Assembly (NCBI GenBank): GCA_025699005.1
Contig: JAILWI010000002.1
Coordinates: forward strand, 303,246-367,245
Source of the DNA: Chloroflexota bacterium
GTDB lineage: Bacteria > Chloroflexota > Limnocylindria > QHBO01
Direction: 5' to 3'
DNA length: 64,000 nt
Both the position numbers and the translations under genes were made by a program. Positions within the stretch are counted from its first letter, which is position 1; the number at the start of each line of letters is the position of its first letter. Under the pieces are notes generated by a model. It worked only from the letters and a program-made list of their open reading frames with translations, was not told the DNA's origin and did no database searches. This document shows, piece by piece, positions 20,096 through 44,562 of the stretch.

Positions 20096-20892
20096 TCGAC
20101 ACCGAGGCCCGCTCGGCGTTCGCACGAGCCGGTCAGCCGTCGGCGGAGGCGGCGGTCACCGTCGCGTACCTCGCAGGCCTGGCCGCGGCCGAACTGACGT
20201 TGGTGGCCGCCGGGCCGATTCCCGGCGCGCTGGCCCATGCGGCGCTCCTCCTCGGCCTGGCCATCCACGCAACGATGCTGCCGGATGCGCCGTACCAGCG
20301 GATGCTCGCCGCTATCACGCTCGCTCCCATGATCCGGCTGCTCAGCCTGCTCCTGCCGATCTCGGGCGTGCCCCCGGTCTTCTCCATCGCGCTCGTCGGT
20401 GGCCTGAGCCTCGTCGGAGTCGCCGTCGCGGTCCGTGTGCTCATGGTGCGATGGGCCGATCTCGGCTTCCGTCGTTTCGACTGGGGCGTTCAGTCGATCA
20501 TCGCCGCTGCGGGCTTTCCCTCGGGCCTGGCGATCTGGGTCGCAGCCCGCCCGTTAGCGGTCGTCCCCGAGCTGAGCATCGAATGGGTCGTGCTGAGCAT
20601 CGTGGTGTTCACCGTCTTCGTCGCCGGTGTCGAGGGCCTCGCATTTCGCGGCCTCATCCAGACCATGGCTCGTGAGCGGTTCGGGACCGTGGCGTCGATC
20701 GCCATCGCAACGCTCGTGCCGTCGGTCCTCCTCCTGAGCGCCCTCGACCCGATCGCGATCCTCCTGCTCACCGCGCTGAACCTGGCGCTGGCTTGGGCCG
20801 TCGACTGGAGCCGATCCACGGTGGGTGCCATCGGCGCCCACGCGCTCGCCCTGTTCGGGATGCTCGTGCTCTGGCCGCTCACTCTCGGATGA
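20092..20892 (+). CDS. CPBP family intramembrane metalloprotease (CAAX protease / bacteriocin-processing family)
   Basis: Polytopic protein with a degenerate EExxxR-like motif (GVEGLAFRGL) and a later His-containing helix (GAHALALFG). GTG start overlapping the upstream stop. Confidence 0.55.
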   Translation: MIDTEARSAFARAGQPSAEAAVTVAYLAGLAAAELTLVAAGPIPGALAHAALLLGLAIHATMLPDAPYQRMLAAITLAPMIRLLSLLLPISGVPPVFSIALVGGLSLVGVAVAVRVLMVRWADLGFRRFDWGVQSIIAAAGFPSGLAIWVAARPLAVVPELSIEWVVLSIVVFTVFVAGVEGLAFRGLIQTMARERFGTVASIAIATLVPSVLLLSALDPIAILLLTALNLALAWAVDWSRSTVGAIGAHALALFGMLVLWPLTLG

Positions 20893-26307: not shown

Positions 26308-26350
26308 GAGTGGTGCCAGCTGTCACCACTCGCCAGTACGAAAGTACTGG
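26308..26350. terminator. two consecutive perfect-stem hairpins/palindromes immediately after the 25379-26302 gene
   Basis: GAGTGGTG-CCAGCTGT-CACCACTC (26308-26331) then CCAGTAC-GAAA-GTACTGG (26333-26350). Likely terminator and/or operator between the phosphoesterase operon and the RND locus. Confidence 0.35.
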
Positions 26351-26600
26351 ACAAACCGGGACCGATCTGCACATCATCGGCCCACGTCGGATGAGACGCC
26401 GGGTGCACTCCGAGCACACCAGGCGACGGGGGAACCGACACGGAGGATAGGGACCGTGCATCGCCCGAGGATGCGCCGTACCGGCTCTCTCGCTGCTGCG
26501 GCGAACGATCCGCGCGACCTGGGAAGCATCGGCTGACCATGCCTCGCATGCTGCCCGCCAGGCCGTTCCGAACCAGCATCCACCATCCGGTGACTGCGTG

Positions 26601-29600
26601 ATGGCAGGCATCGTCCGCTGGAGCCTACGCTTCCGCCGGCTCGTCGTGGCACTCGCCGCGGTCACGATCATCTTCGGCTTCACCCAGCTGTCGAGCGCGC
26701 CGGTCGACACCCTGCCCGAGTTCTCGCCACCGTACGTGGAGGTGCAGACCGAGGCCCTGGGCCTGTCCGCCGAGGAGGTGGAGCAGCTCATCACCGTGCC
26801 GCTCGAGGCCGACCTGCTCAACGGCGTGGCGTGGCTGGACAAGATCGAGTCGCAGTCCGTCCAGGGCCTCTCGTCGATCGTGATGACCTTCGAGCCAGGC
26901 ACGGACCCGATCCGCGCCCGGCAGGTCGTGGCGGAGCGCCTGACCCAGGCCCACGCCCTTCCGAACGTCTCCAAGCCGCCGGTCATGCTGCAGCCGCTCT
27001 CGTCGTCGAACCGCGTGCTGATGATCAGCCTGACGTCGGACGAGCTGTCGCTGATTGACATGTCGGTGCTCGCGCGCTGGACCGTCAAGCCGCGACTGCT
27101 CGGTGTCCCCGGGGTGGCCAACGTGTCCATCTGGGGCCAGCGGGAGCGCCAGCTCCAGGTCCTCGTCGACCCGCATCACCTGCAGGCGGCGGGCGTGTCC
27201 CTCGACGAGGTGGTCGAGACGGCCGGCAACGCGCTGTGGGTCTCCCCCTTGAGCTTCCTCGAGGCCTCGACCCCCGGCACGGGCGGCTTTATCGACACCC
27301 CGAACCAGCGGCTCGGGGTGCAGCACGTGCTGCCGATCGACTCGGCCGATGACCTCGCCCAGGTCACGGTCGCCAGCGAGGACGCCCGGTACCGCCTAGG
27401 GGACGTCGCCACGGTGGTGGAGGACCATCAGCCGCTCATCGGCGACGCCATCGTCGGCGAGGGCGACGGCCTGCTTCTCGTCGTCGAGAAGTTCCCCGGC
27501 ACCGACACCCTGACCGTCACGCGCGACGTCGAGGACGCCATGGCGGCGCTCGCGCCCGCGATCACCGGGATCGACGTGGACACCACGCTCTTCCGGCCGG
27601 CGACGTTCCTGGAGCAGGCGCTCGACAACGTCACGCTGGCCATCCTCATCGGCCTCATCCTGGCGATCGCCGTGATCACGGCACTGCTCCGCGACTGGCG
27701 TGCGGGCGTGGTCAGCCTGGTCACGATTCCGCTGTCGCTGGTGCTCGGGGGCCTCGTGCTCCTGGCGCTCGGCGCGACGTTCAACGCCATGGTCGCCGCA
27801 GGCCTCGTCGTCGCGCTCGCCATCGTCATCGACGACACGGTGACGACGAGCGCCAGCATCAGGGCACGCGCCGATGGGGCCTCCGGCGGCACGGACGAGG
27901 CGTCGACCCTCGCGCGCACCGTGCGCGGCGTGATCGCCGTCCGCGGCACCACCTTCTACACCCTGGTGGTGCTCGGACTGAGCGTCATTCCGCTGTTCTT
28001 CGTCGGCTCGGAGCTGGGGGCCATGCTCCCGTCGCTCGCCACGGCGCTCATCGTCGCCCTGCTGGCGTCGGTGCTCGTTTCGATCACGGTCGCCCCGGCC
28101 CTGGCCTTCATGCTCGGCAGTGGCCGCCCCGCGCCGGCGCGCGAGACGCGCCTCATCGCCCGCGGGCAGGCCGCCTACGGCACCACGCTGACCCGCGTGC
28201 TCGATCGGTCGAGGCCGATGCTCCTGGGGGTATCGGCCGTCGCCGTGGTCGCCGTCCTCGGCTTTGGCGCATGGGTCGCCCCCGGCGTCGCGAGCTCGGC
28301 CACGCCGGAGTTCCGCGATCGCAACATTCTGGTCCACTGGGACGGCGCGCCCGGATCCTCACACGGGGCCATGCGCCGCATCGTGGCGGAGGCCAGTGCC
28401 GACCTGCGCGCCATCCCGGGCCTCGAGAACGTCGGGGCCCACATCGGGCGGGCCATTTTCTCCGACCAGGTGGGAGGCATCAACGACGGCGATATCTGGC
28501 TGACCATCGCGCCCGACGCCGACTATTCGGCGACGGTGGCCGCGGTCGAGCAGGTGGTCGCCGGGTTCCCCGGCATGAGCCGGGGGGTGGCAACCTACGG
28601 CGCCGATCGCGTGGAGCAGATCGTGGGCACGGAGACCGACGACATCGTGGTCCGCGTGTACGGCGAGGATCAGGCGGTCCTGGGGACGCAGGCAGATGCG
28701 GTGCTCGGTGCCGTGCGCACCATTCCGGGCGTTGCGGAGGCGCGCATCGACGCCCCGACCATGGAGCCGACCGTTCGGATCACCGTTGACCTCGCGGCCG
28801 CCGAGCTCAATGGCCTGACGCCCGGCGCCGTGCGCCGGACGGCGACGACTCTGCTCTCGGGCCTGGAGGTCGGCAGCCTCTTCGAGGGCCAGAAGGTCTT
28901 CGAGGTCGTGGTCTGGGGCGTCCCCGCACTGCGGGAGAATCTCTCGACCATCCAGGCCCTGCCGATCGAGACGTCCACCGGCCGGATGGTGACCCTCGCT
29001 GACGTCGCCGACATCGAGATCGCGCCGGCGCCGGTCAGCATCTATCGCGAGGGCGTGCAGCGCGTGCTCGACGTCGCCATCTCGGTGGCGGGTCGTGACG
29101 TCGGCGGCGTGCTGCGCGATGTCGAGACGGCCCTGGCCGGCGTGGCGTTCCCCGTGGAGACGCACGCCGAGGTGCTGGGCCTCACCGCGGAGCGCTCGGC
29201 TCAGCAGGGCGCGCTTCTCGCCGTGGGAGCGGCGGCCCTCATCGGCATCCTGCTCGTGCTCCAGGCCGCGCTCGTCAGCTGGCGTGTCGCGGCGCTCGTG
29301 CTCCTCAGCCTGCCGGCGGCACTGTCGGGCGGCATCGTGGTGGCGCTCGTGTTGGGCACGCAGGCCACGTTCGGGGCACTGCTCGGGCTGCTGGCGGTGC
29401 TCGCCATCGCCGTGAAGCAGGCGCTGCTGCTCATGGACCATTACCGCGACCTCGAGGCCGGCGGAGCGACGCGGGACGAGTGGCTCGTGATCCGGGGAGC
29501 CCGGGAGCGAATGGTGCCGACGGTGACCACCGCGCTCGCCGTCGCGGCGGCCCTGGTGCCGTTCGCGATCCTCGGCAACCAGGCGGGAGCCGAGATCATT

Positions 29601-29762
29601 CATCCGATGTCGCTCGTGGTGCTGGGCGGGCTCGGGACCACGCTGCTCGTGAACCTGTTCTTCCTGCCGTCACTCCTGACGCCCATGGGCATGAGCCCCG
29701 AGGTCGAGGAGGTGGCGATCCCCGTAGAGACCGCCGAACGCCGCGTGATTGGAGCGAGCTGA
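26601..29762 (+). CDS. HME-type RND efflux permease (CzcA/CusA family)
   Basis: 1054 aa. N-terminus (IVRWSLRFRRLVVALAAV...LSSAPVDTLPEFSPPYVEVQT) matches the CzcA-type N-terminal consensus. About 12 TM helices and two large periplasmic loops. A GTG at 26598 is also possible. Confidence 0.85.
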   Translation: MAGIVRWSLRFRRLVVALAAVTIIFGFTQLSSAPVDTLPEFSPPYVEVQTEALGLSAEEVEQLITVPLEADLLNGVAWLDKIESQSVQGLSSIVMTFEPGTDPIRARQVVAERLTQAHALPNVSKPPVMLQPLSSSNRVLMISLTSDELSLIDMSVLARWTVKPRLLGVPGVANVSIWGQRERQLQVLVDPHHLQAAGVSLDEVVETAGNALWVSPLSFLEASTPGTGGFIDTPNQRLGVQHVLPIDSADDLAQVTVASEDARYRLGDVATVVEDHQPLIGDAIVGEGDGLLLVVEKFPGTDTLTVTRDVEDAMAALAPAITGIDVDTTLFRPATFLEQALDNVTLAILIGLILAIAVITALLRDWRAGVVSLVTIPLSLVLGGLVLLALGATFNAMVAAGLVVALAIVIDDTVTTSASIRARADGASGGTDEASTLARTVRGVIAVRGTTFYTLVVLGLSVIPLFFVGSELGAMLPSLATALIVALLASVLVSITVAPALAFMLGSGRPAPARETRLIARGQAAYGTTLTRVLDRSRPMLLGVSAVAVVAVLGFGAWVAPGVASSATPEFRDRNILVHWDGAPGSSHGAMRRIVAEASADLRAIPGLENVGAHIGRAIFSDQVGGINDGDIWLTIAPDADYSATVAAVEQVVAGFPGMSRGVATYGADRVEQIVGTETDDIVVRVYGEDQAVLGTQADAVLGAVRTIPGVAEARIDAPTMEPTVRITVDLAAAELNGLTPGAVRRTATTLLSGLEVGSLFEGQKVFEVVVWGVPALRENLSTIQALPIETSTGRMVTLADVADIEIAPAPVSIYREGVQRVLDVAISVAGRDVGGVLRDVETALAGVAFPVETHAEVLGLTAERSAQQGALLAVGAAALIGILLVLQAALVSWRVAALVLLSLPAALSGGIVVALVLGTQATFGALLGLLAVLAIAVKQALLLMDHYRDLEAGGATRDEWLVIRGARERMVPTVTTALAVAAALVPFAILGNQAGAEIIHPMSLVVLGGLGTTLLVNLFFLPSLLTPMGMSPEVEEVAIPVETAERRVIGAS

Positions 29763-29763
29763 G

Positions 29764-30207
29764 ATGACCGGACAACGCCGACTGCTGCTGGTGGGGACCC
29801 TCGCGCTGGTGGTCCCGCTGGGCGCCTGCGCCGAAGGGAGTTCGGAGCATCACGGCGAGGAGCCCGCGGTCCTGGAGCCGGTGGGAGGTGACGACGGCCT
29901 TCTTCGCATCCGCCTCACCGAGAACGCCGCGGCGCGGCTGGCCATCGAGACGGCACCGATCGAGTCGGCCTCGGGCGGCATGTCGTCCGTGCCCTACGGA
30001 GCCATCTTCTACGGCACTGATGGAGAGACCTGGGTCTACATCAGCCCCGAGCCCCTGGTCTTCATGCGCGAGCCGGTCGTGGTCGATCGGATCGAGGACG
30101 GCGTGGCCCTCCTGACCAACGGACCGCCCGAGGGCACGGCCGTGGCGACGGTCGGCGTGGCCGAGCTGTTCGGCACCGAGATCGGCATGGGCGGGGCCGC
30201 CCACTAA
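29764..30207 (+). CDS. small lipoprotein (147 aa) between the two RND genes
   Basis: ATG 29764 is 2 nt after the RND stop. Signal peptide plus lipobox (LVVPLGACAEG). It may be a minimal periplasmic adaptor-like beta-domain, which is inference only. Confidence 0.45.
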   Translation: MTGQRRLLLVGTLALVVPLGACAEGSSEHHGEEPAVLEPVGGDDGLLRIRLTENAAARLAIETAPIESASGGMSSVPYGAIFYGTDGETWVYISPEPLVFMREPVVVDRIEDGVALLTNGPPEGTAVATVGVAELFGTEIGMGGAAH

Positions 30208-30239: not shown

Positions 30240-33200
30240 ATGCGCGCCATCATCTCCGCCAGCCTCCGGTTCCGTTACATCGTCGTGGCCCTCACCGCCG
30301 CGATGATGGCGTTCGGCATCGGCGAGGTGCAGCGCATGCCGGTGGACGTGTTCCCCGAGTTCGCTCCGCCACGCGTGGAGATCCAGACCCCGTCCTTGGG
30401 CCTGTCGGCCGCCGACGTCGAGGAGCTCGTCACCGTTCCGCTGGAGGAGGTGCTGGCCGGCGTCGACGGACTCGACGTCATCCGCTCGAAGTCCGTGCGC
30501 GACCTGTCTTCGGTGCTCCTCATCTTCGAGCCGGGCACCGATCTCATCCAGGCGCGCCAGCTCGTCCAGGAACGGGTGAATCAGGTCACGCCGTCGCTGC
30601 CCAGCTGGGCGAGTCCGCCGTTCATGCTCCAGCCGCTCTCGTCCACGAGCCGCGTGATGAAGATCGGCATGACCTCGGACACGCGGTCGCTCATGGACAT
30701 GTCGATGACCGCCTACTGGAAGGTGCGGGCTCGGCTGCTCGGCGTCCCCGGGGTGGCGCACGTCGCCATCTGGGGCGAGCGTCTCCAGATGCTCCAGGTG
30801 CAGATGGACCCCGTGCGTATGGCGCGGCACCGCGTGACGGTGCACGAGGTCATGGAGTCGACTTCGGCCTCGTTGGACGAGGGCATCCTCCAGTTCAGCG
30901 ACGGCAACATCATCGGTACCGGCGGGTTCATCGACACGCCCAACCAGCGGCTGGCCATCGCCCACGTGCCGCCGATCAAGCAGCCGGACGACCTCCAACA
31001 CGTCATGGTCGAGACGCGGGACGGTCGCCAGGTGCCGATCACCTCGGTGGCGGAGCTCGTCACCGACCACCAGCCGCTAATCGGCGACGCGGTCATTGAC
31101 GACGGGCCGGGCTTGATGCTCATCGTCGAGAAGTTCCCGTGGGCGAACACGCTGGACGTGACGCGAGGCGTGGAGGCGGCCCTGGCCGAGCTGGAGCCGG
31201 CCATGGGCGGGATCGTGGTCGATGCCGAGATCTTCCGTCCAGCCACGTTCATCGAGACGGCCCTGGAGAACTTGACCCGCGCCCTTCTTCTGGGCTCGAT
31301 CCTCGTGGTGATCGTGCTGCTCCTGTTCCTGTTCGAGTGGCGCACGGCACTCATCAGCATCATCGCCATCCCTACCTCGCTGATGGCGGCGGCACTCGTG
31401 CTGAACTGGCAGGGCGCGACCATCAACACCATGGTGCTTGCGGGATTCGTCATCGCCGTCGGCGTGGTGGTGGACGACGCCATCATCGATATTGAGAACA
31501 TCGTCCGCCGCCTGAGGCAGCATCGCCGCGCCGGGAGCACGAAGTCGACCACGTCGATCGTGATCGAGTCATCGCTCGAGGTCCGCTCGGCGATCCTGTA
31601 TGCCACGCTCATCGACGTGGTGGCGGTGGCGCCGATCTTCTTCATCGGCGGGCTGTCGGGCGCGTTCTTCCAGCCGCTGATCCTCGCCTACGCGCTCGCC
31701 ATCCTGGCCTCCATGGTGGTCGCGCTGACGATCACTCCGGCCCTCGCCTACGTGCTGCTGCGCAATGCTCCGACCGAGCGCAGCGAGTCGCCGTTCGCCG
31801 AGTGGCTCCGTCGCGGCTACGAGCGCGTGCTCTCGAAAATCGTGGTCAGGCCCCGGAATGCCTACGCGGCCGTCGGCTCGATCATGCTCGCCGGCGCCCT
31901 CGTCTATCCGCAGCTCGGCCAGTCGCTCCTCCCCGATTTCAAGGAGCGTGACTTCCTGATGCACTGGCTGACCGCCCCCGGCACGTCATTGCCGGAGGAG
32001 GTGCGCATCTCCGAGCGCGCCTGCGTCGAGCTCCAGACCATCCCGGGGGTGCGCAACTGCGGCGCCCACATCGGCCAGGCGCTGCTCATGGACGAGGTGG
32101 TGGGCGTGGACTTCGGCGAGAACTGGATCAGCGTCGATCCGTCGGTCGACTACGACGCCACGCTCGCCTCGGTCCAGGAGGTCGTCGACGGCTATCCCGG
32201 GCTGATCCGCGACGTCCAGACCTACCTCAAGGAGCGCATCCGCGAGGTCCTGACGGGGTCGAGTGACGCCATCGTGGTCCGGATCCACGGCCGCGACCTC
32301 GACGTGCTGCGCGACGTTGCCGAGGACGTCGAGGAGGAGATGGCTGCGATCGACGGGCTGGTTGATCTCCATGTCGAGCGCCAGCGAGAGATCCCGGAGA
32401 TCACCGTCGAAGTCGATCTCGAGGCTGCGCTCGTGCACGGCATCAAGCCGGGAGATGTCCGTCGCGTCGCATCGACCCTCATTGCCGGCGAGGAGGTTGG
32501 AGATATCTTCTTCGGTGGCCGCGCCTATGACGTGCAGGCATGGAGCACTCCAGAGACACGTGCCGATCTGACGAGCATCGAGGAGCTGCTCATCGACACC
32601 CCGTCGGGCAATCGAATCCCTCTGGGTGAAGTGGCGCGGATCACCATGGCGCCGACGCCGAACGCCATCTTCCACGAGGGGCTGTCGCGACGGCTCCACG
32701 TCGAGGCCAACGTTCGTGGCCGCGATCTGGGTGCCGTGGTGCGCGACGTCGAGGCCGCCATCGCCCGGGTCGAGTTCCCGCAGGAGTACCACCCCGAGCT
32801 TCTCGGTGAGCTGCAGGAACGCGAGGCTGCAGAAGGGCGCCTCCTGCTCTTCGGCATCGGCGCCGCATTCGGCATCTTCATCCTGCTCGTTACCTCCTTC
32901 GGCGTCGTGCGTGTCGCGCTGCTGTCGTTCCTGACTCTGCCGTCGGCGCTCGTGGGTGGCGTCCTCGCTGCCTGGGTCGGCGGTGGAGTCATCTCACTCG
33001 GTTCCCTCGTCGGGTTCTTCACGATCCTCGGGATCGCTGCTCGCAACGGCATCATGATGATCAATCACTTCCAACACCTTGAACGCTACGAGGGCATGGA
33101 GTTCGGTCCCGAGCTCGTCATTCGCGGCGCCCGCGAGCGCCTCGCGCCGATCCTCATGACGGCGTCGGCCACGGGCCTGGCGCTCATTCCGCTCGTGATC

Positions 33201-33377
33201 GCCGGCGATCTGCCCGGGCACGAGATCGAGCACCCGCTCGCGATCGTCATCCTGGGAGGCCTCGTGACGTCCACGCTCCTCAACCTGTTCGTCGTCCCGT
33301 CGCTCTACCTCCGCTTCGCTCGTGACTGGCGACGCCACGGATCCGATGGCGACGCGCAGGCGGGAACCCCGGCGTGA
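30240..33377 (+). CDS. HME-type RND efflux permease (CzcA/CusA family), second paralog
   Basis: 1045 aa, collinear with 26601-29762 (MRAIISASLRFRYIVVALTAAMMAFGIGEVQRMPVDVFPEFAPPRVEIQT...). Confidence 0.85.
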   Translation: MRAIISASLRFRYIVVALTAAMMAFGIGEVQRMPVDVFPEFAPPRVEIQTPSLGLSAADVEELVTVPLEEVLAGVDGLDVIRSKSVRDLSSVLLIFEPGTDLIQARQLVQERVNQVTPSLPSWASPPFMLQPLSSTSRVMKIGMTSDTRSLMDMSMTAYWKVRARLLGVPGVAHVAIWGERLQMLQVQMDPVRMARHRVTVHEVMESTSASLDEGILQFSDGNIIGTGGFIDTPNQRLAIAHVPPIKQPDDLQHVMVETRDGRQVPITSVAELVTDHQPLIGDAVIDDGPGLMLIVEKFPWANTLDVTRGVEAALAELEPAMGGIVVDAEIFRPATFIETALENLTRALLLGSILVVIVLLLFLFEWRTALISIIAIPTSLMAAALVLNWQGATINTMVLAGFVIAVGVVVDDAIIDIENIVRRLRQHRRAGSTKSTTSIVIESSLEVRSAILYATLIDVVAVAPIFFIGGLSGAFFQPLILAYALAILASMVVALTITPALAYVLLRNAPTERSESPFAEWLRRGYERVLSKIVVRPRNAYAAVGSIMLAGALVYPQLGQSLLPDFKERDFLMHWLTAPGTSLPEEVRISERACVELQTIPGVRNCGAHIGQALLMDEVVGVDFGENWISVDPSVDYDATLASVQEVVDGYPGLIRDVQTYLKERIREVLTGSSDAIVVRIHGRDLDVLRDVAEDVEEEMAAIDGLVDLHVERQREIPEITVEVDLEAALVHGIKPGDVRRVASTLIAGEEVGDIFFGGRAYDVQAWSTPETRADLTSIEELLIDTPSGNRIPLGEVARITMAPTPNAIFHEGLSRRLHVEANVRGRDLGAVVRDVEAAIARVEFPQEYHPELLGELQEREAAEGRLLLFGIGAAFGIFILLVTSFGVVRVALLSFLTLPSALVGGVLAAWVGGGVISLGSLVGFFTILGIAARNGIMMINHFQHLERYEGMEFGPELVIRGARERLAPILMTASATGLALIPLVIAGDLPGHEIEHPLAIVILGGLVTSTLLNLFVVPSLYLRFARDWRRHGSDGDAQAGTPA

Positions 33378-34312
33378 CGCGCACGCTCGGCCGCGTTCGC
33401 GTCCTGCCCATCCCGATGGTGGCCGCGCTGCTGCTGTCAGCCTGCGGCTTGGTTGCGGGTACCCCGCTGCCGACGGTCGCCCCCGCGAGTGCCGGGGCCA
33501 CGCCCACCGTCGCCCCGTCGCCGAGCGCCTCGGCGCCGGACGGCGACCTGCCGCCACCGTTCCCGTACGAGAGCCTCGGCGACCCCACCACCGTCACGAA
33601 CCCGTACCTGCCCTTGGTGCCGGGCACCTACTGGAGATGGGAGGGTGTGACCGTGGAGGACGACGAGGAGATCCCGCACCAGATCATCACCATGGTCACC
33701 GACATGACGAAGATGATCGACGGCGTGTCGACCATCGTCGGGTACGACGAGGACTGGGCGGACGGCGAGCTGGTCGAAGCCGAGATCTTCTTCGCCGTCC
33801 AGGACGACGACGGCAATGTGTGGCGTCTCGGCGAGTACCCCGAGGAATACGAGGGTGGGCAGATGGTCGCCAACCCGGCATGGGTCGCGGGGGCGGACGG
33901 CGCGCTCGCGGGCGTCATGATGCCGGCCGAGCCGGCGCGCGGCGGACAGAGCTACGCGCAGGGCTGGGGACCGGGGGTCGGCTGGGCAGATCGCGGATGG
34001 GTGATCGTCGACGGCGACCAGGATTGCGTGCCCGCCGGGTGCTACGAGGACGTGATCGTCGTCCAGGAATGGGACATCGCCGAGCCACTGGCCCGCCAGC
34101 TGAAGTTCCATGCCCCGGGGGTCGGGGTGATTCGCGTCGACTGGTCGGGGAGCGCCGACCAGAGCCAGGAGTCCCTCGAGCTGGTCGAGTTCCGCCAGCT
34201 GACGGACGAGGAGCTGGCGGACCTTCGCGAGAAGGCGCTGGCCCTGGAGGAACGAGCTCACGACACACTTCCCGGGCTCTTCTCCGATACCGAGCGCATG
34301 CAGCCGATCTGA
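33374..34312 (+). CDS. hypothetical lipoprotein (312 aa)
   Basis: GTGA overlap with the RND gene. Signal peptide plus lipobox (LLLSACGLVAG) and a PST-rich linker. No identifiable catalytic motif. Confidence 0.5.
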   Translation: MTRTLGRVRVLPIPMVAALLLSACGLVAGTPLPTVAPASAGATPTVAPSPSASAPDGDLPPPFPYESLGDPTTVTNPYLPLVPGTYWRWEGVTVEDDEEIPHQIITMVTDMTKMIDGVSTIVGYDEDWADGELVEAEIFFAVQDDDGNVWRLGEYPEEYEGGQMVANPAWVAGADGALAGVMMPAEPARGGQSYAQGWGPGVGWADRGWVIVDGDQDCVPAGCYEDVIVVQEWDIAEPLARQLKFHAPGVGVIRVDWSGSADQSQESLELVEFRQLTDEELADLREKALALEERAHDTLPGLFSDTERMQPI

Positions 34313-34337: not shown

Positions 34338-35336
34338 GTGGGCGTTTCCAGTCTCGAGCCGGCCGATGGCTCAACGTTCCTCCTGCAGGCGCACGACCTG
34401 CAGATGTCGTACGGCCCGCGCCGGGCGCTGCGCGGACTCTCGTTCTCGCTCGGTGCCGGGAGGATCCTCGGCTTCCTGGGGCCCAACGGAGCGGGAAAGA
34501 CGACGGCCATCCGCATCCTGACCACCGTGCTCGAGCCGACGGCCGGCCATTTCGAGGTCGGCGGCATCCGCTCCGACGAGCCGGATCGAATCCGCGGACG
34601 GATCGGCGTGCTGCCCGAGAATCTCGGCTTCCCGCGCCACATGACCGGGCTCGAGTACCTGACCTATTTCGGCGAGCTGTTCGGGCTCGCGCAATCCGCC
34701 GCCCGGGAGCGGGCCATCGGCCTGCTGGATGACGTCGGGCTGGCGCAGCGCGGGACGTCCCGCATCGGCTCGTACAGCCACGGCATGCGCCAGCGCCTCG
34801 GCATCGCCCGTGCCCTCGTCAACGAGCCGCTCGTGATCTTCCTGGACGAGCCCACGCTCGGGCTCGATCCGCGTGGCCAGCAGGAGCTGCTGGCGCTCAT
34901 CCGGCGCGTGGCGAGTGAGCGCGGCGCGAGCATCGTGCTGTGCAGCCACTCGCTCCCCGAGATCGAGGGGATCTGCGACGACGTCGTGATCCTGAATCTC
35001 GGTCAGGTCGTCGCCGCGGGGACGGTCGCGGAGGTCATCGACCAGGCGGGGAGCGAGGTGCTCCACGTGCGCGTCGACCCCGCATCGGCTGAGCGCGCGC
35101 GCGACGCGCTCCTGGCGGTCGTCGGGGTCGCGGACGCCTCGGTCAGCGACGCGCTCACCGGCCGGGTGGTGATCAGGCTCGGCGAGGCGGCAGACGGGCC
35201 GCCGGACAGACCGGGCATTCGCGACGCCGTTCTTGCCGCCCTGGTAGCCGCCGAGATCCCGGTGATCAGCTTCGGCTACACCGGAAATCGACTCCAGGAC
35301 CTGTTCCTCCAGGTCACGGATGAGGCGATCTCATGA
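34338..35336 (+). CDS. ABC transporter ATP-binding protein
   Basis: Walker A GPNGAGKTT, ABC signature SHGMRQRLGIARAL, Walker B VIFLDEPTLGLD. Confidence 0.85.
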   Translation: MGVSSLEPADGSTFLLQAHDLQMSYGPRRALRGLSFSLGAGRILGFLGPNGAGKTTAIRILTTVLEPTAGHFEVGGIRSDEPDRIRGRIGVLPENLGFPRHMTGLEYLTYFGELFGLAQSAARERAIGLLDDVGLAQRGTSRIGSYSHGMRQRLGIARALVNEPLVIFLDEPTLGLDPRGQQELLALIRRVASERGASIVLCSHSLPEIEGICDDVVILNLGQVVAAGTVAEVIDQAGSEVLHVRVDPASAERARDALLAVVGVADASVSDALTGRVVIRLGEAADGPPDRPGIRDAVLAALVAAEIPVISFGYTGNRLQDLFLQVTDEAIS

Positions 35337-37324
35337 GCGAATCGATCCAGGAGCTCGGGGCGCTCCAGCCCGGGGCGCGGGTCCGGACGGCGACACGCGT
35401 GCGCCCCACGTGGTGGGTGGTGATGGCCAACGAGATCCACGGCCTGTGGGTGGGCGGCAAGGCGCCGATCCTGCTGCTGCTCTACAGCATCGTGCTGGGC
35501 GCGCACGCCTTCGTGACGGCGTACAACGTCGAGCTCAGCCTGATGCCGCCCAACGAGATGGTGTACGAGACGGTGAAGACCGCCATCTCGGTGGGGATCT
35601 TCCTGGGGATGATGATCGGCGCCGATGCCATCAGCGGGGAACGGGAGCGAGGAACGCTCGAGGCTCTGCTCCTGACCCCCACCCGTCGCCGGCAGGTGGT
35701 GATCGGCAAATTCCTGGCCGCGCTCACCCCGTGGCCGGTTGCCTTCGTGCTGACCATCCCGTACCTCGCGGTGCTCGGGCAGGGCCACGAGGTCCTGCTG
35801 CCGGCCATCGCCTGGGGTGCCGTGCTCGGCACCGTGCTGACCGTGGCGTACACGGGAACGGGGCTGCTCGTCAGCCTATGGTCGAACAACAACCGCACCA
35901 GCTACCTCGTCAGCCTGGGCATCTACATCCTCATCCTCGTCCCGTCGCAGCTTCCCGGTCGGGCCCAGACGGGCGCCGCCGGCCAGTTCCTGCAGCAGGT
36001 CAACCCGCTCGCCGCCCTCAACCATTTCCTGTCGAAGATCCTCGTCAACAACCGCACCTTCGAGGAATTCGGCACCTGGCTGCTCTCGCCGATCATCTTC
36101 GCGACGGTGGTGATGGTCCTGCTCGTCGGCGTCTCGGCCCCGCGCCTGCGACTCGAGGCCGGGCGCCTTGCTCGCGCCGACGGCGTGATCGGCCGGGCGT
36201 TCGGGCGCCTGGGCGGGCTGTTCGTCCTCGTGGCCGCGCTGGTCATCCCTGCCGCATCCTTCGCCTCATCGACCACGGGCACGGTGGCGCCGTCCAGCCA
36301 GGTGGCGTCGGATGGGGTCCCGGTCGAGATCTCCGTGGATCTCGAGTACCAGACGGTCAACACCGGCGATGCGGTGTTCTTCGACACGGTGGTGACGAAC
36401 CCGACCGACGTCGCGAGCGCGCCCCTCATCGTGGCGATGAACATCATCAACCTCGACCAAGAGGGCGACGTCGTCGACCCCGAGGACTGGTCGCCCGAGC
36501 GAACCCAGTACGTCGACCGGCTGGATCCGGGTCAGTGGGCCATCCTCTCCTGGCGTGTGAACGCCATCCTGGATGGCGACTACATCGTGTACATGGTGGT
36601 CATGCCGCAGCCCGCCGCGGCGGACGCCACGAGCCAGGCGGTGGCAAGCTCGGGCATCCACCTGACCGTGCTTCCGTTCACGCGGCTGAATCCCGGAGGT
36701 GTCATGCCGCTGGTGCTGGGGGCGCCGACCGTGCTCGCCATCGGCACGGGTCTGATCCTGTCGATTCGGCGGCGTGAGACCGGTGGCGGAGGCCGCCCGC
36801 TGAAGTACCTGCGGCTCCCGGTGGTGCTGGGTGGTGTGGTGCTCTCCCTGGTCGTCCTCAGCGGCTTCGCGGTGATGTCGCAGCCACCGTCCGCCGGGAT
36901 TCCCGGCCAGAGTGGGGTCCGCACCGAGGACGACGGAAGCACGACAATGACGGTAGAGACGCTCACCGGCGCCGAGGACTTTGCGTACGCGCAGACGGCG
37001 TACGAAGTTCCGGCAGGAGCTCCGCTCACCGTCGAGCTCTATAACCGGACCGATCCGGCCGATGAGATCGGTCACAACTGGGTGCTCGTCGAACCCGGTC
37101 AGGAGGCGGCCGTTCTGGCCAGCGGTTTGGAGGCGGGAGATGACCTCGATTGGCTCGACATCGACGCGCCCGGGATGATCGCCCACGTTCCGCTCATCGA
37201 AGGCGGGGAGAGCAACGCTGTCACGTTCGACCCGCCGCCGCCCGGCACCTACACGTTCATCTGCACGTTCCCGGAACATCATGCCGGTGGGATGATCGGG
37301 ACACTGACGGTTGTGGAGCCATGA
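35333..37324 (+). CDS. ABC-2 family permease (NosY-like) fused to a C-terminal extracytoplasmic type-1 copper (cupredoxin) domain
   Basis: ATGA overlap with the ATPase. N-terminal 6-TM ABC-2 permease with the GERERGTLEALL motif. An extra TM is followed by a cupredoxin domain carrying all four type-1 Cu ligands (His in IGHNWVLVEPG; Cys/His/Met in CTFPEHHAGGM). Confidence 0.7.
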   Translation: MSESIQELGALQPGARVRTATRVRPTWWVVMANEIHGLWVGGKAPILLLLYSIVLGAHAFVTAYNVELSLMPPNEMVYETVKTAISVGIFLGMMIGADAISGERERGTLEALLLTPTRRRQVVIGKFLAALTPWPVAFVLTIPYLAVLGQGHEVLLPAIAWGAVLGTVLTVAYTGTGLLVSLWSNNNRTSYLVSLGIYILILVPSQLPGRAQTGAAGQFLQQVNPLAALNHFLSKILVNNRTFEEFGTWLLSPIIFATVVMVLLVGVSAPRLRLEAGRLARADGVIGRAFGRLGGLFVLVAALVIPAASFASSTTGTVAPSSQVASDGVPVEISVDLEYQTVNTGDAVFFDTVVTNPTDVASAPLIVAMNIINLDQEGDVVDPEDWSPERTQYVDRLDPGQWAILSWRVNAILDGDYIVYMVVMPQPAAADATSQAVASSGIHLTVLPFTRLNPGGVMPLVLGAPTVLAIGTGLILSIRRRETGGGGRPLKYLRLPVVLGGVVLSLVVLSGFAVMSQPPSAGIPGQSGVRTEDDGSTTMTVETLTGAEDFAYAQTAYEVPAGAPLTVELYNRTDPADEIGHNWVLVEPGQEAAVLASGLEAGDDLDWLDIDAPGMIAHVPLIEGGESNAVTFDPPPPGTYTFICTFPEHHAGGMIGTLTVVEP

Positions 37325-37413
37325 GCCGGCCCGCGTCACGCGAAGTCGCTACCCGATGGCGAATCGGCACACGGCGGCGTACTGTGATGGCCGGCAAGCG
37401 ATCGACGCGGGGG

Positions 37414-37726
37414 ATGGAGGCGCCCCGTTTCCGACACCGACGTTGATGACGACTGGCACCTGACGCCCCGCGAGCGCGACGTCCTCATCCAGGCGTCCCT
37501 GGGGAAGAGCAATCGCGAGATCGGTGAGGCGCTGTCCATCGCCGAGCAGACCGTGAAGAACCACCTCGGCAACGCGATGCACAAGCTCTCCCTCAACGAC
37601 CGGACGCACGCCGTGGTCGTCGCGATCAGCCGCGGCCTGATTCCTTTGCCCGTGGCGTCTCAGCGGCCGACGGGATCGGAGACTGAGCGCCCGGAAGAGG
37701 TCGAAGGTCCTCGCTCGACTCCCTAG
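37414..37726 (+). CDS. GerE/LuxR-type HTH small regulator with irregular start (possible frameshift or non-canonical initiation)
   Basis: Frame-2 translation LTPRERDVLIQASLGKSNREIGEALSIAEQTVKNHLGNAMHKLSLNDRTHAVVVAISRGLI is a complete LuxR C-terminal HTH (GerE-like). That frame has no ATG/GTG/TTG between the upstream stop (37385) and the HTH. An ATG at 37414 lies in frame 1 and terminates at 37446. Stop TAG at 37724-37726. Confidence 0.4.
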
Positions 37727-37795
37727 CCTCGCGAGCTCGAGGCGACACCCGGCGCAAAACCTCGGGCTGGCTCCCGTCATCATCGCACTCGGCTA

Positions 37796-39261: not shown

Positions 39262-39684
39262 TCAGTGAACCCGGTCGTGATCCAGCGAGCGCAGTCGCTG
39301 CGCGACCGTCTCCAGCACGTGGAGCCGAACCTCCGGGAAGTCGTCCATGAGCGTGTGGAACTCACGTCGCGCGAGGACGAGGAGGCGTGAGTCGGCCTTG
39401 AGGGTGACGCTCGCCGTCCGCGGACCGCCGTCGATCAGTGCGATCTCGCCGAGCACCGTGCCCGGTCCACGCTCGCCCAGTGATTCGCCGTCGCGCTCGA
39501 CGTCGGCCGCCCCATCGATGAGGATGAACATCTCGGCGCCGCGTTCACCCTGCGCCATGATGCGGCGCCCTGCGGGCAGGTCGACGATGTCCGCCAGCGA
39601 GCCGATCCTCTCGAGCTCGCGGTCGCGCAGCCCTTCGAACAGGGGCACCGCTCGCAGCAGGTCGATCTTCTCGTCGTGGCCCAC
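39262..39684 (-). CDS. cyclic nucleotide-binding domain protein (140 aa)
   Basis: Crp-like cNMP-binding beta-roll (LLRAVPLFEGL...IMAQGERGAEMFILIDGAADVER...GPGTVLGEIALIDGGPRTASVTL). GTG start at 39684. The longer track ORF would overlap the divergent NUDIX gene. Confidence 0.55.
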   Translation of the reverse strand: MGHDEKIDLLRAVPLFEGLRDRELERIGSLADIVDLPAGRRIMAQGERGAEMFILIDGAADVERDGESLGERGPGTVLGEIALIDGGPRTASVTLKADSRLLVLARREFHTLMDDFPEVRLHVLETVAQRLRSLDHDRVH

Positions 39685-39777
39685 CGAACCCTCCCGATGC
39701 GATGAATGGGTCGCCGTAGCGTAGCGCCTCGGGACGGCGCTGCGAAGAGGGGAATCCCACGTCGCTACCATGCAGGC

Positions 39778-40368
39778 ATGCCGCAGCGCGACGTCTCCGA
39801 CGCCTTTCCCCTGACGCTCGGGGAGAACCCGCGCTTCTGCCCGGCCTGTGGTGACTCCGTCGAGGCCCGGACGCTCGAGGACGACCATCGTCCACGCCTC
39901 GTGTGTCCTCGCGGCCATGTCACGTGGCGCAACCCCCGCGTGGTGGTGGGTGCCATCCCCGTCGCGGACGGTCGAATCTACCTCGGGCGGCGTGCCATCG
40001 AGCCCGCCCGGGATCGTTGGACGTATCCCGGCGGCTTCCTCGAGATCGGTGAATCGGCGCAGGAAGGAGCACGGCGCGAGACGGAGGAGGAGACGGAGCT
40101 GCTCGTGGAGATCGGCCGGCTCGTCGGCGTGTACTCGCGGCCGCATGCCGGGATCGTGGCCATCGTCTTCGAGGCGTCGGTCGTGGGCGGGCGGCCGGAA
40201 CCCTCGGCGGAGACGAGCGAGGTCCGCGCGTTCGGCCCCGACGAGATTCCCTGGGATGAGCTCGCGTTCAGCACGGTAGAGAGCGCGCTCCGGGACTGGG
40301 TCGCGGCGCTGCCGGGACGCGGCCCGCGCCACGAGCCCCAGCTCTACGTCGAGGGTGACCCGGCGTAG
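39778..40368 (+). CDS. NUDIX hydrolase with N-terminal zinc-ribbon (NudC-like)
   Basis: Nudix box GGFLEIGESAQEGARRETEEETEL. Upstream CPACG...VCPRGH ribbon. Confidence 0.75.
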   Translation: MPQRDVSDAFPLTLGENPRFCPACGDSVEARTLEDDHRPRLVCPRGHVTWRNPRVVVGAIPVADGRIYLGRRAIEPARDRWTYPGGFLEIGESAQEGARRETEEETELLVEIGRLVGVYSRPHAGIVAIVFEASVVGGRPEPSAETSEVRAFGPDEIPWDELAFSTVESALRDWVAALPGRGPRHEPQLYVEGDPA

Positions 40369-40897: not shown

Positions 40898-42166
40898 TCA
40901 GCCGGCGTACCGCGTGAAGACGCTGACGGCGTTCTGCCCCCCGAACCCGAAGCCGTTGGCGATCGCGACGTCGACCGAAGCGGTTCGGGCCGTGTTCGGA
41001 ACGTAGTCCAGATCGCACGCGGGATCGGGGGTCTCGAGATTGATCGTCGGCGGGATCGTGCCGTCGCGGATGGCGAGCACCGCGGCGAGGCCGGAGATCG
41101 CCCCGGCCGCGCCGAGCGTGTGGCCCACCATCGACTTGTTGCTGCTGACGGCCAGCCGATCCGCATGAGCGCCGAACGCCGCGCGGATGGCCTTCGTCTC
41201 GGTGGCGTCGTTCAATGGCGTGGACGTGCCGTGGGCGACGACATAGTCGACCTGCTCGGGGGCGAGGTGCGCATCCCGCACCGCTCGCTGCATGGCCATC
41301 GTCGCGCCGTACCCCGCCGGGTCCGGCGCCGAGATGTGGAAGGCGTCGCCGCTGAGGGCGCCGCCCGCGACCTCCCCGATGATCTCCGCGCCACGTGCCT
41401 CCGCGTGCTCCGCCGCCTCGATGACCATGACGACCGCCGCCTCCCCGAAGACGAAGCCGTCGCGGTCGGCGTCGAACGGCCGCGAAGCGCCAGCCGGATC
41501 GTCGTTCCGGGTGGAGAGCGCGCCCATGTTGCCGAGGGCGGCGAACGAGACCGGCATGATGGCGCTCTCGGTGCCGCCGGTGACCACGACGTCCACATCA
41601 CCGTGCTCGATGAGGCGCTGTGCCTCGACGAAGGCCTGGATGCCCGACGCGCACGCGGCCACCGAGGTGATCACCGGGCCTCGGATGCCGTTCTGGATGC
41701 TCACCTGGCAGGCGGCCATCGACGGCGACATCATCGGCACCATGAAGGGGCTGACCCGATCGGGGCCGCGTTCCGTCAGCGTCACCTCGCCGATGGCAAC
41801 CTCCTGAAGACCGCCACCGCCGGTGTTGATGACGACCGCGATGTCATCCCGGTTGGCGTCGCCGATCTCGAGGCGCGACTGGTCGATCGCCTGCCGTGCG
41901 GCCGCGACGGCGAGCTGCGAGAAGCGGCTCATCCTTCGCGCCTGCTTGAAGTCCATCCAGTCCTTCGGCTCGAAGTCCTTGACCTCGGCAGCGATCCGAA
42001 CCTCGAGATCCGACGCGTCGAACAGGCTGATCGGCGCGACGCCCGACACGCCGCCGACGAGGTTGCGCCAGAACGTCTCGACGTCGTTGCCGATGGGCGT
42101 GATGGCGCCCAGGCCGGTCACGACGGCCCGGCGTGCCGGGTCACGCGGCGGCGGGGTGCGGGTCAT
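40898..42166 (-). CDS. fabF: beta-ketoacyl-[ACP] synthase II
   Basis: Active-site Cys context SVAACASG, His motifs VVAHGTSTPLND and MVGHTLGAAG. ATG at 42166 preceded by a strong SD (CAGGAGGATCC). The track ORF extension to 42994 is antisense to the next gene. Confidence 0.85.
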   Translation of the reverse strand: MTRTPPPRDPARRAVVTGLGAITPIGNDVETFWRNLVGGVSGVAPISLFDASDLEVRIAAEVKDFEPKDWMDFKQARRMSRFSQLAVAAARQAIDQSRLEIGDANRDDIAVVINTGGGGLQEVAIGEVTLTERGPDRVSPFMVPMMSPSMAACQVSIQNGIRGPVITSVAACASGIQAFVEAQRLIEHGDVDVVVTGGTESAIMPVSFAALGNMGALSTRNDDPAGASRPFDADRDGFVFGEAAVVMVIEAAEHAEARGAEIIGEVAGGALSGDAFHISAPDPAGYGATMAMQRAVRDAHLAPEQVDYVVAHGTSTPLNDATETKAIRAAFGAHADRLAVSSNKSMVGHTLGAAGAISGLAAVLAIRDGTIPPTINLETPDPACDLDYVPNTARTASVDVAIANGFGFGGQNAVSVFTRYAG

Positions 42167-42219
42167 GAAGGATCCTCCTGGTGCTGGGCGCGCGGCCGAC
42201 CGCCGGACGGCGAAGCCGC

Positions 42220-43500
42220 CTATCGGTCGAAGCGTCGCAGGATGACGGTGCTGTTGTGGCCGCCGAGGCCCATCGAGTTCGAGAGCGCGACCTCGACCTG
42301 GGCCGCCCGGGCCTCGTTCGGCACGTAGTCGAGCGTCAGCTCGGGGTCGGGGTGGCGATAGTTGATGGTGGGCGGGATGCACCCGGTCTGGAGCACCCTC
42401 GCGCAGACGAAGGCCTCGATCGCCCCGGCCGCGCCCATGGCATGTCCGGTCATCGACTTCGTGCTGCTCACCGCCAGGCGATCCGCGTGCTCGCCGAAGA
42501 CCTCGCGGATGGCCATCGTCTCGTAGCGGTCGTTGAGCGGCGTGCTCGTCCCGTGGGCGTTGATGTAACCGACCTCGGTCGGGTCGATGCCGGCGCGGGC
42601 CAGCGCCGCACGCATGGCGCGCTGGTTCCCCTCGCCGCGGTCGGCCGGGGCCGCCATGTCGTAGGCATCGGCGGACGATCCGTAGCCGATCACCTCGGCG
42701 ATCGGGCGCGCCCCGCGCGCCAGCGCATGCTCCATCTCCTCGAGCACGAGCACGGCCGAGCCCTCGGCCACCACGAACCCGTCGCGGGTCGCGTCGAACG
42801 GGCGCGACGCCATCGGTGGGCTGTACTCGCCGGAGTCGGGGTCCTTCGGCGTGCCGAGGGCGCGCATCTGGCCGAACCCGGCGAAGGCGAGCGGCACGAG
42901 CGGCGCCTCGGTGCCGGCGCCGAGCATGATGTCGGCCTGGCCTCGCACGATGGCCTCCATCGCCTCGCCGATGGCGTGGCCGCCGGTCGCGCATGCGCTG
43001 ACCACGGCCATGTTCGGGCCGCGGATGCCGTACTCGATGGCGACCTGTCCCGAGGCGGAGTCGGGGAGCATGTGGGGGAGCATGAACGGCGAGACGCGCC
43101 GCGGCCCGCGCTCGAGCAGGGTCTGGTGCCCGTCGAGCATCATGCCGATCCCGCCGATGCCGGTGCCGAAGACCATGCCGAACCGGTCGGCGTCCACGTC
43201 ACCGTTGACACGGCCGTCGTCGCCGAGCAGGCCGGCGTTGCGAAGTGCCTCGCCGCTCGCCGCGACGGCGAAGTGCGTGTTGCGGTCGTGGCGGCGCACG
43301 TCCTTGGCGTCCATGTACCGGGTGGCGTCGAAATCCTTAACCTCGCCGGCCACGCGGACCTCGAAGGGCGACGCATCGAAGAGCGTGATGTCAGCGATGC
43401 CGGATCGGCCCGAGACCAGGGCGTCCCAGGACGCCTCGACCCCGATCCCGACCGGTGAAACGATGCCGAGGCCGGTGACCACGGCGCGCCGGACCGTCAC
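42220..43500 (-). CDS. beta-ketoacyl-[ACP] synthase (KasA/FabF-like, second paralog)
   Basis: VSACATGG active site, INAHGTSTPLND, MTGHAMGAAG. GTG start overlapping the fabD stop. Confidence 0.85.
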   Translation of the reverse strand: MTVRRAVVTGLGIVSPVGIGVEASWDALVSGRSGIADITLFDASPFEVRVAGEVKDFDATRYMDAKDVRRHDRNTHFAVAASGEALRNAGLLGDDGRVNGDVDADRFGMVFGTGIGGIGMMLDGHQTLLERGPRRVSPFMLPHMLPDSASGQVAIEYGIRGPNMAVVSACATGGHAIGEAMEAIVRGQADIMLGAGTEAPLVPLAFAGFGQMRALGTPKDPDSGEYSPPMASRPFDATRDGFVVAEGSAVLVLEEMEHALARGARPIAEVIGYGSSADAYDMAAPADRGEGNQRAMRAALARAGIDPTEVGYINAHGTSTPLNDRYETMAIREVFGEHADRLAVSSTKSMTGHAMGAAGAIEAFVCARVLQTGCIPPTINYRHPDPELTLDYVPNEARAAQVEVALSNSMGLGGHNSTVILRRFDR

Positions 43501-44486: not shown

Positions 44487-44562
44487 CACATCAAGTCCCA
44501 GAATGCACGCGCGAGTATAGCCGAGCACGCTCGGGCCAGCGATCTCGGGGGTGGTCCGGCGG

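Follow-up and report, generated by a model that had tools for sequence, protein, structure and literature searches.

Blue-copper proteins are known as soluble or tethered electron carriers, and ABC-2 permeases (ABC, ATP-binding cassette) as exporters. The auracyanins belong to the first kind and serve as membrane-tethered or soluble carriers between alternative complex III (ACIII) and the reaction centre or oxidase (PMC3150298). Auracyanins B and A of Chloroflexus and Roseiflexus (PDB 1ov8/1qhq, 2aan and 6kol), which are membrane-tethered type-1 blue copper carriers, are the closest relatives of the domain described here. Metal oxidases such as FtrB or EfeO work with permeases (PMC11966278).

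Here we describe a gene of a Chloroflexota bacterium in which an ABC-2 permease and an auracyanin-type cupredoxin are joined in a single reading frame. The gene (positions 35333–37324) lies in a stretch of 64,000 nucleotides (nt) of contig JAILWI010000002.1 (assembly GCA_025699005.1, positions 303,246 to 367,245 of the forward strand). This stretch is called the window below, and all coordinates refer to it unless another locus is named. The gene stands last in an operon that also encodes an ATPase, two lipoproteins and two pumps of the resistance-nodulation-division (RND) superfamily. As judged from its sequence, it specifies the membrane subunit of a type-V ABC machine (ABC-2, NosY-like fold) with a coupled ATPase. 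Most of the conserved ABC/RND/lipoprotein clusters lack the cupredoxin, which is thus an accessory part. We infer that, within an ABC/RND envelope machine, it serves as a tethered module for one-electron redox chemistry and not as a copper-capture site, a reading to which we give about an even chance.

An ABC-2 permease joined to a blue-copper domain

The initial annotation of the locus had read the open reading frame (ORF) as an ABC-2 permease followed by a cupredoxin, and both assignments hold. The protein matches Pfam family ABC2_membrane_2 over residues 84–268 (E 7.4e-20, 71.8 bits against a cut-off of 27.2) and, in the model search proposed with that annotation, PF00127 (Copper-bind) over residues 543–660 (E 2e-11, 44.6 bits against a cut-off of 21.2), both much better than chance would give. 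The ORF has a third-codon-position (GC3) bias of 0.88, as in genuine genes of the window, whose G+C content is 69.7%. An AlphaFold2 model had a mean predicted local distance difference test score (pLDDT) of 86.2 and a predicted template modelling score of 0.76. Hydropathy, charge distribution and the model concurred on nine transmembrane (TM) helices, with the N-terminus and both ends of the six-helix core in the cytoplasm. A single extra helix after the permease had been expected; we found three (TM7, TM8 and TM9), together with a previously unmentioned outer domain between TM7 and TM8. The parts of the protein are as follows.

35333..37324, + strand: fused protein of 663 amino acids (aa), ABC-2 permease plus outer domain plus auracyanin-type cupredoxin
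35462..36136, + strand: six-TM ABC-2 (type V) core, residues 44–268
36179..36265, + strand: TM7, residues 283–311, preceded by an Arg-rich cytoplasmic loop
36266..36709, + strand: outer beta-sandwich domain, residues 312–459 (~150 aa), with the invariant motif GDVVDPEDWSPxRTQY
36710..36784, + strand: TM8, residues 460–484, followed by the cytoplasmic loop RRRETGGGGRPLKYLR
36815..36877, + strand: TM9, residues 495–515, by comparison of the junction with split homologues a former lipoprotein signal peptide that probably now serves as an anchor
36878..36913, + strand: flexible low-complexity linker of variable length, residues 516–527, with a dip in pLDDT
36914..37315, + strand: auracyanin-type type-1 copper cupredoxin domain, residues 528–661
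37070..37075, + strand: Gly580-His581, with the N-terminal His ligand, in DEIGHNWVLV (codons checked)
37262..37294, + strand: ligand loop Cys644-x4-His649-x4-Met654, CTFPEHHAGGM (codons checked)

Both the outer domain and the cupredoxin are predicted to be extracytoplasmic by the positive-inside rule, because the loops preceding TM7 and TM9 are basic (6 Lys/Arg in each) and the two domains are acidic (4 Lys/Arg against 19 Asp/Glu in the outer domain, 2 against 24 in the cupredoxin region). The derivation of TM9 from a lipoprotein signal peptide, described below, supports the outside location of the cupredoxin independently. The initial annotation had placed the cupredoxin outside as well, in agreement with the charge distribution and with the lipobox signal peptides of split homologues. 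The linker that separates the cupredoxin from TM9 ranges from about 10 to 90 residues among homologues. The outer domain (312–459) gave no Pfam match, even at an E of 1, and its fold matches were generic Ig-like sandwiches only; it was present in all 90 of the related loci.

An assembly artefact as the source of the fusion could be ruled out, as more than 24 independent protein clusters from different samples have the same fusion and TM9 lacks the lipobox Cys. Since the operon has one permease gene only, the fused permease is likely to form a homodimer. At the outer end of TM9 (residues 510–517, window 36860–36883), A513, S516 and Q517 are invariant in 24 homologues. The pattern here, V/I/T-x-S followed by Q, fits signal peptidase I, which might release the cupredoxin from the permease after insertion.

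The copper site and its subfamily

Among solved structures, the best sequence matches of the cupredoxin were auracyanin B of Chloroflexus (3.7e-22) and the Roseiflexus auracyanin (1.1e-20), followed by auracyanin A (1.6e-18) and azurins (about 1e-14). In a HMMER alignment, His581, Cys644, His649 and Met654 coincide with the copper ligands of auracyanin B. The two motifs singled out in the initial annotation are present, GHNWVLVEPG at residues 580–589 and CTFPEHHAGGM at 644–654, and with them all four ligands. The loop had been written one residue too short, however: it is C-x4-H-x4-M, exactly the spacing of auracyanin B (CTFPGHYLAGM). The predicted fold is a Greek-key beta-sandwich superimposable on blue-copper proteins, and the His-Cys-His-Met site superimposes on that of auracyanin. 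Because the score against the NCBIfam azurin equivalog TIGR02695 (54.9 bits) fell below its cut-off of 105.1, the domain belongs to the azurin/auracyanin family and is not an azurin orthologue.

Conservation of the ligands, on which the initial annotation had staked its reading beforehand, was borne out. Gly580, His581, Cys644 and His649 are invariant in 24 of 24 full-length fused homologues (57–77% identity), and the ligands are also conserved in split, stand-alone forms. The axial position is Met in 18 of the fused homologues, Gly in four and Glu in two. A search of 1.8 billion proteins gave 12 representatives of the permease-linked subfamily at an E of 1e-30 or better. Their signature, D-E-[IV]-G-H-N-W-V-L-V ... 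C-T-F-P-[ED]-H-x-A-G-G-M, sets them apart from generic auracyanin-like proteins, which instead read x-Q-H-N-W-V-L-V and C-T-F-P-G-H. In a rough neighbour-joining tree of cupredoxin domains, too crude to tell a single from a multiple origin of the fusion, the subfamily separates from five generic auracyanin-like proteins.

The subfamily has acidic residues of its own, namely an invariant Asp577-Glu578 pair before His581 and Glu or Asp at position 648, before His649. From the alignment and the known structure, we take these positions to fall on the hydrophobic electron-transfer patch of azurin (Val43, Gly116). Acidic residues that ring the exposed His could favour a basic partner or, as in FtrB and EfeO, hold a cation. 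The same acids near His might also be regarded as the substrate site of a permease-coupled metal oxidase, in which the cupredoxin would oxidise Fe2+, Cu+ or Mn2+ at the mouth of the transporter. We think this very unlikely: a single type-1 centre has no O2-reducing site and would require a further electron sink, FtrB and EfeO are of a different cupredoxin class with different ligands, and we know of no ABC-2 exporter driven by oxidation of its substrate.

Split relatives and the origin of the fusion

A search with TM9 and the cupredoxin domain retrieved stand-alone proteins of 183–217 aa, 45–65% identical to the query. All five that were looked up in their loci (P0130, P0127, P0122, P0124 and P0128) are encoded directly 3' of an ABC-2 permease gene, the interval between the two genes being -4 to +65 nt. 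The permeases (474–513 aa) carry an outer domain of the kind found in the fused protein and terminate in TM8, RRRR and a short tail. The split cupredoxins are predicted to be exported lipoproteins because their N-termini show an n-region rich in Arg, then a hydrophobic segment and a lipobox (LLAAC followed by S). Fused proteins join the end of the split permease to the start of the cupredoxin. Since these elements adjoin in fused proteins without the lipobox Cys, the fusion deleted the stop codon and the intergenic gap and made the lipoprotein signal peptide into TM9.

In a scan of one genome per species, 213 genomes had a relative of the permease, and 80 loci were kept. A cupredoxin was present in five of the 80, in each case 3' of the outer domain and no more than about 400 nt away from it. 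Among the five, one is fused (in an Anaerolineae metagenome-assembled genome, MAG) and four are split (Terrabacter lapilli JCM 15628, an Intrasporangium MAG and two Chloroflexota MAGs), so that the cupredoxin-positive loci span Chloroflexota and Actinomycetota (Terrabacter, Intrasporangium). Because four cupredoxin-positive loci (L006, L012, L031 and L044) have no RND gene within 10 kb, it is the ABC module and not the RND pumps that the cupredoxin accompanies. One of them, L012 (NZ_BAAAPU010000003.1), belongs to the cultured actinobacterium T. lapilli JCM 15628, which has the split form and no RND gene nearby. The locus encodes an ATPase, a tandem ABC2 permease of 750 aa that includes the outer domain, and a cupredoxin lipoprotein of 199 aa whose axial residue is Glu.

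The gene arrangement bears on the question of whether permease and cupredoxin act together. An ordinary respiratory auracyanin might have borrowed an anchor or co-expression from the permease and be functionally uncoupled from it. The closest characterised relatives are indeed membrane-tethered carriers of the respiratory and photosynthetic chain, and the long, flexible, length-variable linker is what one would expect for a roaming carrier. On the other hand, the adjacency recurs in five of five independent look-ups, in two phyla and whether the genes are fused or split; the linked cupredoxins make up a subfamily whose signature is missing from generic auracyanins; and in other genomes the cupredoxin is fused to a second component of the cluster. 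A merely passive tether thus seems unlikely.

The second fusion is found in three proteins, P0255, P0256 (ORF L052:4694-6799) and P0258, where a cupredoxin of the subfamily is fused N-terminally to a LolA-like lipoprotein domain with a long helical tail. It is a second tie between the cupredoxin and the extracytoplasmic assembly. All three proteins have Ser in place of the Cys and Asn or Gln in place of the C-terminal His. The loss of these residues shows that the domain can persist without a type-1 copper site and points to a structural or docking role, at least in the LolA-like fusions. A purely structural role of the cupredoxin in general is suggested by the existence of such variants, but the copper ligands are invariant elsewhere. 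Together, the selected fusion to the permease, the split versions in two phyla and the second fusion to a cluster component indicate that cupredoxin and ABC module probably cooperate physically.

The operon and its conservation

The genes of the operon follow each other in the order RND1, mini-adaptor lipoprotein, RND2, LolA-like lipoprotein, ATPase, fused permease. They are tightly packed, overlapping or nearly abutting, and the next genes (cysS and others) lie on the opposite strand. The two RND genes had been correctly noted upstream of the ABC genes in the initial annotation; the two lipoprotein genes, which also belong to the operon, had been passed over.

26348..26377, + strand: sigma-70-like promoter match TGGACA-18-CATCAT (9/12 matches), weak evidence
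26598..29762, + strand: RND transporter 1 (RND1), a divergent copy of 1054 aa (ACR_tran 4.6e-153)
29749..30207, + strand: mini periplasmic-adaptor lipoprotein of 152 aa, corresponding to the C-terminal part of a membrane fusion protein (MFP), lipobox PLGAC
30240..33377, + strand: RND transporter 2 (RND2), 1045 aa (ACR_tran 7.7e-211)
33374..34312, + strand: putative LolA-like open beta-barrel lipoprotein of 312 aa, no Pfam family, start overlapping the RND2 stop
34338..35336, + strand: ABC ATPase of 332 aa, DrrA-like (ABC_tran 3.9e-27)

Two promoter-like sites were found in the region upstream of the operon, where 0.4 would be expected. The likely true start of the mini-adaptor is the ATG at 29764, 1 nt past the RND1 stop. 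The ATPase gene lies upstream of the permease gene as annotated; its stop overlaps the permease start by 4 nt (ATGA), and the two are translationally coupled. In NCBIfam the ATPase comes closest to the drrA subfamily, scoring 231 bits where the cut-off is 312.

The gene order of the window recurs in the loci of two fused homologues (L001 and L002) and around relatives of about 800 aa from Acidobacteriota and Gemmatimonadota, which lack the cupredoxin and consist of a tandem ABC2-ABC2 with an outer domain of the same kind and a final TM helix. The cluster occurs in Chloroflexota, Acidobacteriota, Gemmatimonadota, KSB1 and other groups. Its components were counted in the 45 species loci whose upstream flank spans 9 kb or more.

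ATPase: 45 of 45 loci
At least one RND: 36 of 45 loci
At least two RNDs: 31 of 45 loci
Mini-adaptor: 33 of 45 loci
312-aa lipoprotein family: 23 of 45 loci, a lower bound, as in some arrangements the gene would lie beyond the flank

The mini-adaptor is conserved between two RND genes in L001–L004 and L009, and its homologue in L007 matches RND_mfp (TIGR01730) at 1.3e-9. It has no conserved Met/His motif: six homologues do not keep the pair of His residues seen near the N-terminus in the window. The 312-aa lipoprotein gave a LolA-like fold match and shows no sequence relationship to LppX. In its family (P0134, P0136, P0138) a C-x4-C pair (C218, C223) is nearly invariant; the family also occurs as tandem duplications of about 500 aa, and L001:7753-8955 is a paralogue with a helical C-terminal extension. 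In L007 (5247-7275, - strand), and also in L008, genes for an OmpR-type regulator and a histidine kinase separate the RND half from the ABC half. In L007 the kinase has a heavy-metal type as its best NCBIfam match and the regulator as its second-best, both below cut-off.

Some clusters without a cupredoxin, on contigs that encode the relatives of about 800 aa, have a gene for a small secreted PepSY-like protein 3' of the permease (L003:12426-12752, L004:14059-14388, L005:5581-5925). In L003 only, it follows the permease directly, roughly at the position that the cupredoxin takes in Chloroflexota and Actinomycetota; the L004 and L005 genes are found 1.6–2 kb and several genes downstream. A metallophosphoesterase encoded upstream of RND1 was rejected as a member of the system, not being conserved beside the cluster in the 45 loci.

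Probably neither copper pumps nor a Nos system

The initial annotation had called both pumps Cus/Czc-type. Among solved structures, the best match of RND1 was ZneA (1.4e-68); RND2 matched ZneA at 1.3e-110 and CusA at 7e-89. Scores against the NCBIfam CusA/CzcA model TIGR00914 (567.8 bits for RND2, 361.3 for RND1) were both below the cut-off of 701.45. The Met triad of CusA (M573, M623, M672) is absent in RND2, where His, Phe and Glu occupy these positions (alignment to CusA, offset 7). The TM4 signature of CzcA and ZneA, D-x5-D-x6-E (DFG..DGA..VEN), is incomplete in both pumps: RND2 reads AVGVVVDDAIIDIEN (VVDDAIIDIEN), with the first Asp missing and an AcrB-like DD pair, and RND1 reads VIDDTV, with no EN. 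A full-length CusB/CzcB adaptor is absent, the 152-aa lipoprotein being its sole counterpart, and no outer-membrane factor was found in the window. Because of the low scores, the missing Met triad and the incomplete TM4 signature, "Cus/Czc-type" should be read as a nearest-neighbour label and does not denote membership.

These features have a direct bearing on a role of the cupredoxin in copper capture or hand-over, by which it would bind copper outside the cell and exchange it with the RND pumps or the ABC exporter in detoxification. Such a role draws support from the RNDs, which are nearest ZneA and CusA among solved structures and NCBIfam models, from the heavy-metal matches of the L007 two-component pair, and from the conserved acids Asp577, Glu578 and Glu/Asp648 beside the two His ligands. 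It is opposed by the departures of the RNDs from Cus and Czc just described, by the below-cut-off scores of the L007 pair, and by the lack of a conserved Met/His motif in the mini-adaptor. Genes for CopA, CopZ, CsoR, Sco, a multicopper oxidase, ACIII or an oxidase did not turn up in Pfam scans that covered nearly all ORFs of the window. Moreover, the copper site superimposes on that of auracyanin, an electron-transfer type, and the cupredoxin-positive loci L006, L012, L031 and L044 do without nearby RND genes. Copper capture therefore seems to us quite unlikely.

The ABC module had also been likened to NosY. The resemblance stands as far as the fold is concerned (NosY of NosDFY, PDB 7o0y, identity 16%), but membership of a Nos system fails: Pfam scans confirmed that the operon has no nosD, nosL or nosZ, as had been stated, and detected no NosZ or NosL in the window. 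One could still picture a NosDFY-like machine in which the ABC module, with the outer domain in place of NosD, loads copper and the cupredoxin is its client. However, the operon has no NosD or NosL homologue, no NosY-specific model matched, 75 of the 80 related systems have no adjacent cupredoxin, and covalent 1:1 fusion of a client to its own assembly machine would be odd. Variants without Cys and His cannot be copper clients, and to our knowledge type-1 copper proteins generally need no dedicated ABC machine. This explanation, too, has a low probability, similar to that of copper capture.

A proposed tethered redox module

The reading we prefer, a tethered redox module, would have a flexible tether hold a blue-copper centre near the outer mouth of an ABC-2 machine that works as a homodimer. 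There the cupredoxin would exchange electrons with a partner protein or an exported species, as auracyanin does in electron transport, and in most lineages the machine would cooperate with two RND pumps and the LolA-like lipoprotein. His-Cys-His-Met centres of the cupredoxin fold are buried electron-transfer sites, not exchange sites. For this reason we favour a redox function over copper capture; we do so also because no Cu(I)-type Met/His/Cys motif was seen in the partner proteins, because most related systems work without a cupredoxin, and because the domain follows the ABC module, not the metal-like RNDs. The interpretation offered in the initial annotation is thus upheld in part, its redox alternative being favoured and copper capture or hand-over disfavoured.

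Several observations weigh against a redox role. The axial ligand varies between Met, Gly and Glu, which is unusual for one dedicated electron-transfer chain, and copper ligands are lost in three of three LolA-like fusions. The 75 species loci without a cupredoxin show that the domain is dispensable for the core function. Finally, neither a redox partner (ACIII, oxidase or cytochrome) nor a gene that would define the substrate occurs in the 64-kb window. The absence of act/cox genes from the window says little, however, since the auracyanin genes of Chloroflexus are also distant from ACIII (PMC3150298).

As to the cargo, the LolA-like lipoprotein and the DrrA-like ATPase hint, by analogy, at a hydrophobic envelope component, and the RNDs, whose nearest relatives are heavy-metal efflux (HME) pumps, hint at a metal ion. 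One-electron redox chemistry might be coupled to export, or to assembly on the outer face, for example through oxidation of a metal ion or a redox-active lipid, with the copper relaying the electron to the respiratory chain. We regard this coupling as a speculation with rather poor prospects; if true, it would represent a redox-assisted ABC/RND transport mechanism without precedent.

Other genes of the window

Just 3' of the operon, a 144-aa ORF (37349–37783, - strand) gave no family match. Beyond cysS lies the gene of a 356-aa protein with a C-terminal cyclic-nucleotide-binding domain (39262–40332, - strand), followed by a row on the same strand (40898–46853) that comprises a ketosynthase (698 aa, extended at its N-terminus by about 280 aa), another ketosynthase, an acyltransferase, an M20 peptidase and a gene of the Caroten_synth family. 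The row may serve the biosynthesis of a lipid or pigment; neither L001 nor L002 conserves it beside the operon.

On the other side of the operon, a 653-aa Beta_helix/NosD-Pfam protein (13035–14996) and an 826-aa Big_5/Big_7 protein (15183–17663) are encoded among GT2 and Polysacc_synt genes (7939–12881) and are probably part of the surface-glycan machinery. In L002, a CBM96/Beta_helix/NosD protein (L002:11889-14180) is encoded directly 3' of the fused permease. A NosD role was considered for the Beta_helix/NosD-Pfam protein about 20 kb upstream, the only NosD match of the window, and for that of L002; they were judged unrelated, lying beside polysaccharide genes. Two large ORFs (17708–19471, 587 aa; 20793–23228, 811 aa) have good coding statistics and no Pfam match.

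Comparison with known systems

Both domain families are known, and their pairing has already surfaced in automatic annotation, where JGI calls P0003 [quoted passage not shown]. Full-text literature searches found no paper on the fusion or on the RND/ABC/lipoprotein cluster. What is new is the domain combination, the series of split and fused forms, the second fusion to a LolA-like domain and the link to a widespread cluster. The cupredoxin provides a first functional handle on this cluster (RND, adaptor stub, RND, LolA-like lipoprotein, ABC), which has no described function and is present in no fewer than 213 species genomes from phyla that inhabit soil and sediment. The fusion also bears on how membrane-protein architecture evolves, in that a lipoprotein signal peptide becomes an extra TM helix. 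T. lapilli JCM 15628, as a cultured carrier of the split form, makes the question genetically tractable. If the copper centre acts on the cargo, this would be a new way to couple transport to redox chemistry; if the domain is merely a tethered auracyanin, it would be a modest curiosity of domain architecture.

The pumps have their nearest characterised relatives, by overall similarity, in CusCBA and CzcCBA. Here, by contrast, the adaptor has shrunk to a lipoprotein of 152 aa, and both an outer-membrane factor and CusF are missing. As a whole, the cluster has the same parts as the DrrABC-MmpL7-LppX system for export of phthiocerol dimycocerosates (PDIM) in Mycobacterium, which combines a DrrA-type ABC-2 transporter, an RND protein and a LolA-like lipoprotein (PMC11539658). 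The analogy is one of parts and logic: the RNDs of the window are 12-TM proteins like HME and HAE1 and unlike MmpL, their lipoprotein partner has no LppX relationship by sequence, and the mycobacterial system is not known to have a cupredoxin.

FtrB-FtrC, EfeO-EfeU and Fet3p-Ftr1p have, like the present protein, a cupredoxin-fold protein at the outer face of a permease (PMC11966278), and EfeO and FtrB appear among the fold matches. Those pairs differ in cupredoxin class and ligands and use Ftr1/EfeU permeases for import, whereas here the permease is of the ABC-2 type and presumably exports. Compared with NosY, the window protein has three extra TM helices, a beta-sandwich outer domain of its own, a fused cupredoxin and an operon with RND genes.

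The cupredoxin itself finds its closest counterparts among tethered blue-copper proteins. Auracyanin A and Laz of Neisseria, a lipid-modified azurin (PDB 3ay2), are lipoproteins, as the split cupredoxins appear to be. Laz is a stand-alone protein with no link to an ABC permease; in the fused protein, a TM helix is found instead and the lipobox is lost. In contrast to the auracyanins, the anchor is the C-terminus of an ABC-2 permease, the ligand motifs read DE[IV]GH and CTFP[ED]H in place of xQH and CTFPGH, the axial ligand varies, and the domain is genetically tied to an ABC module rather than to ACIII.

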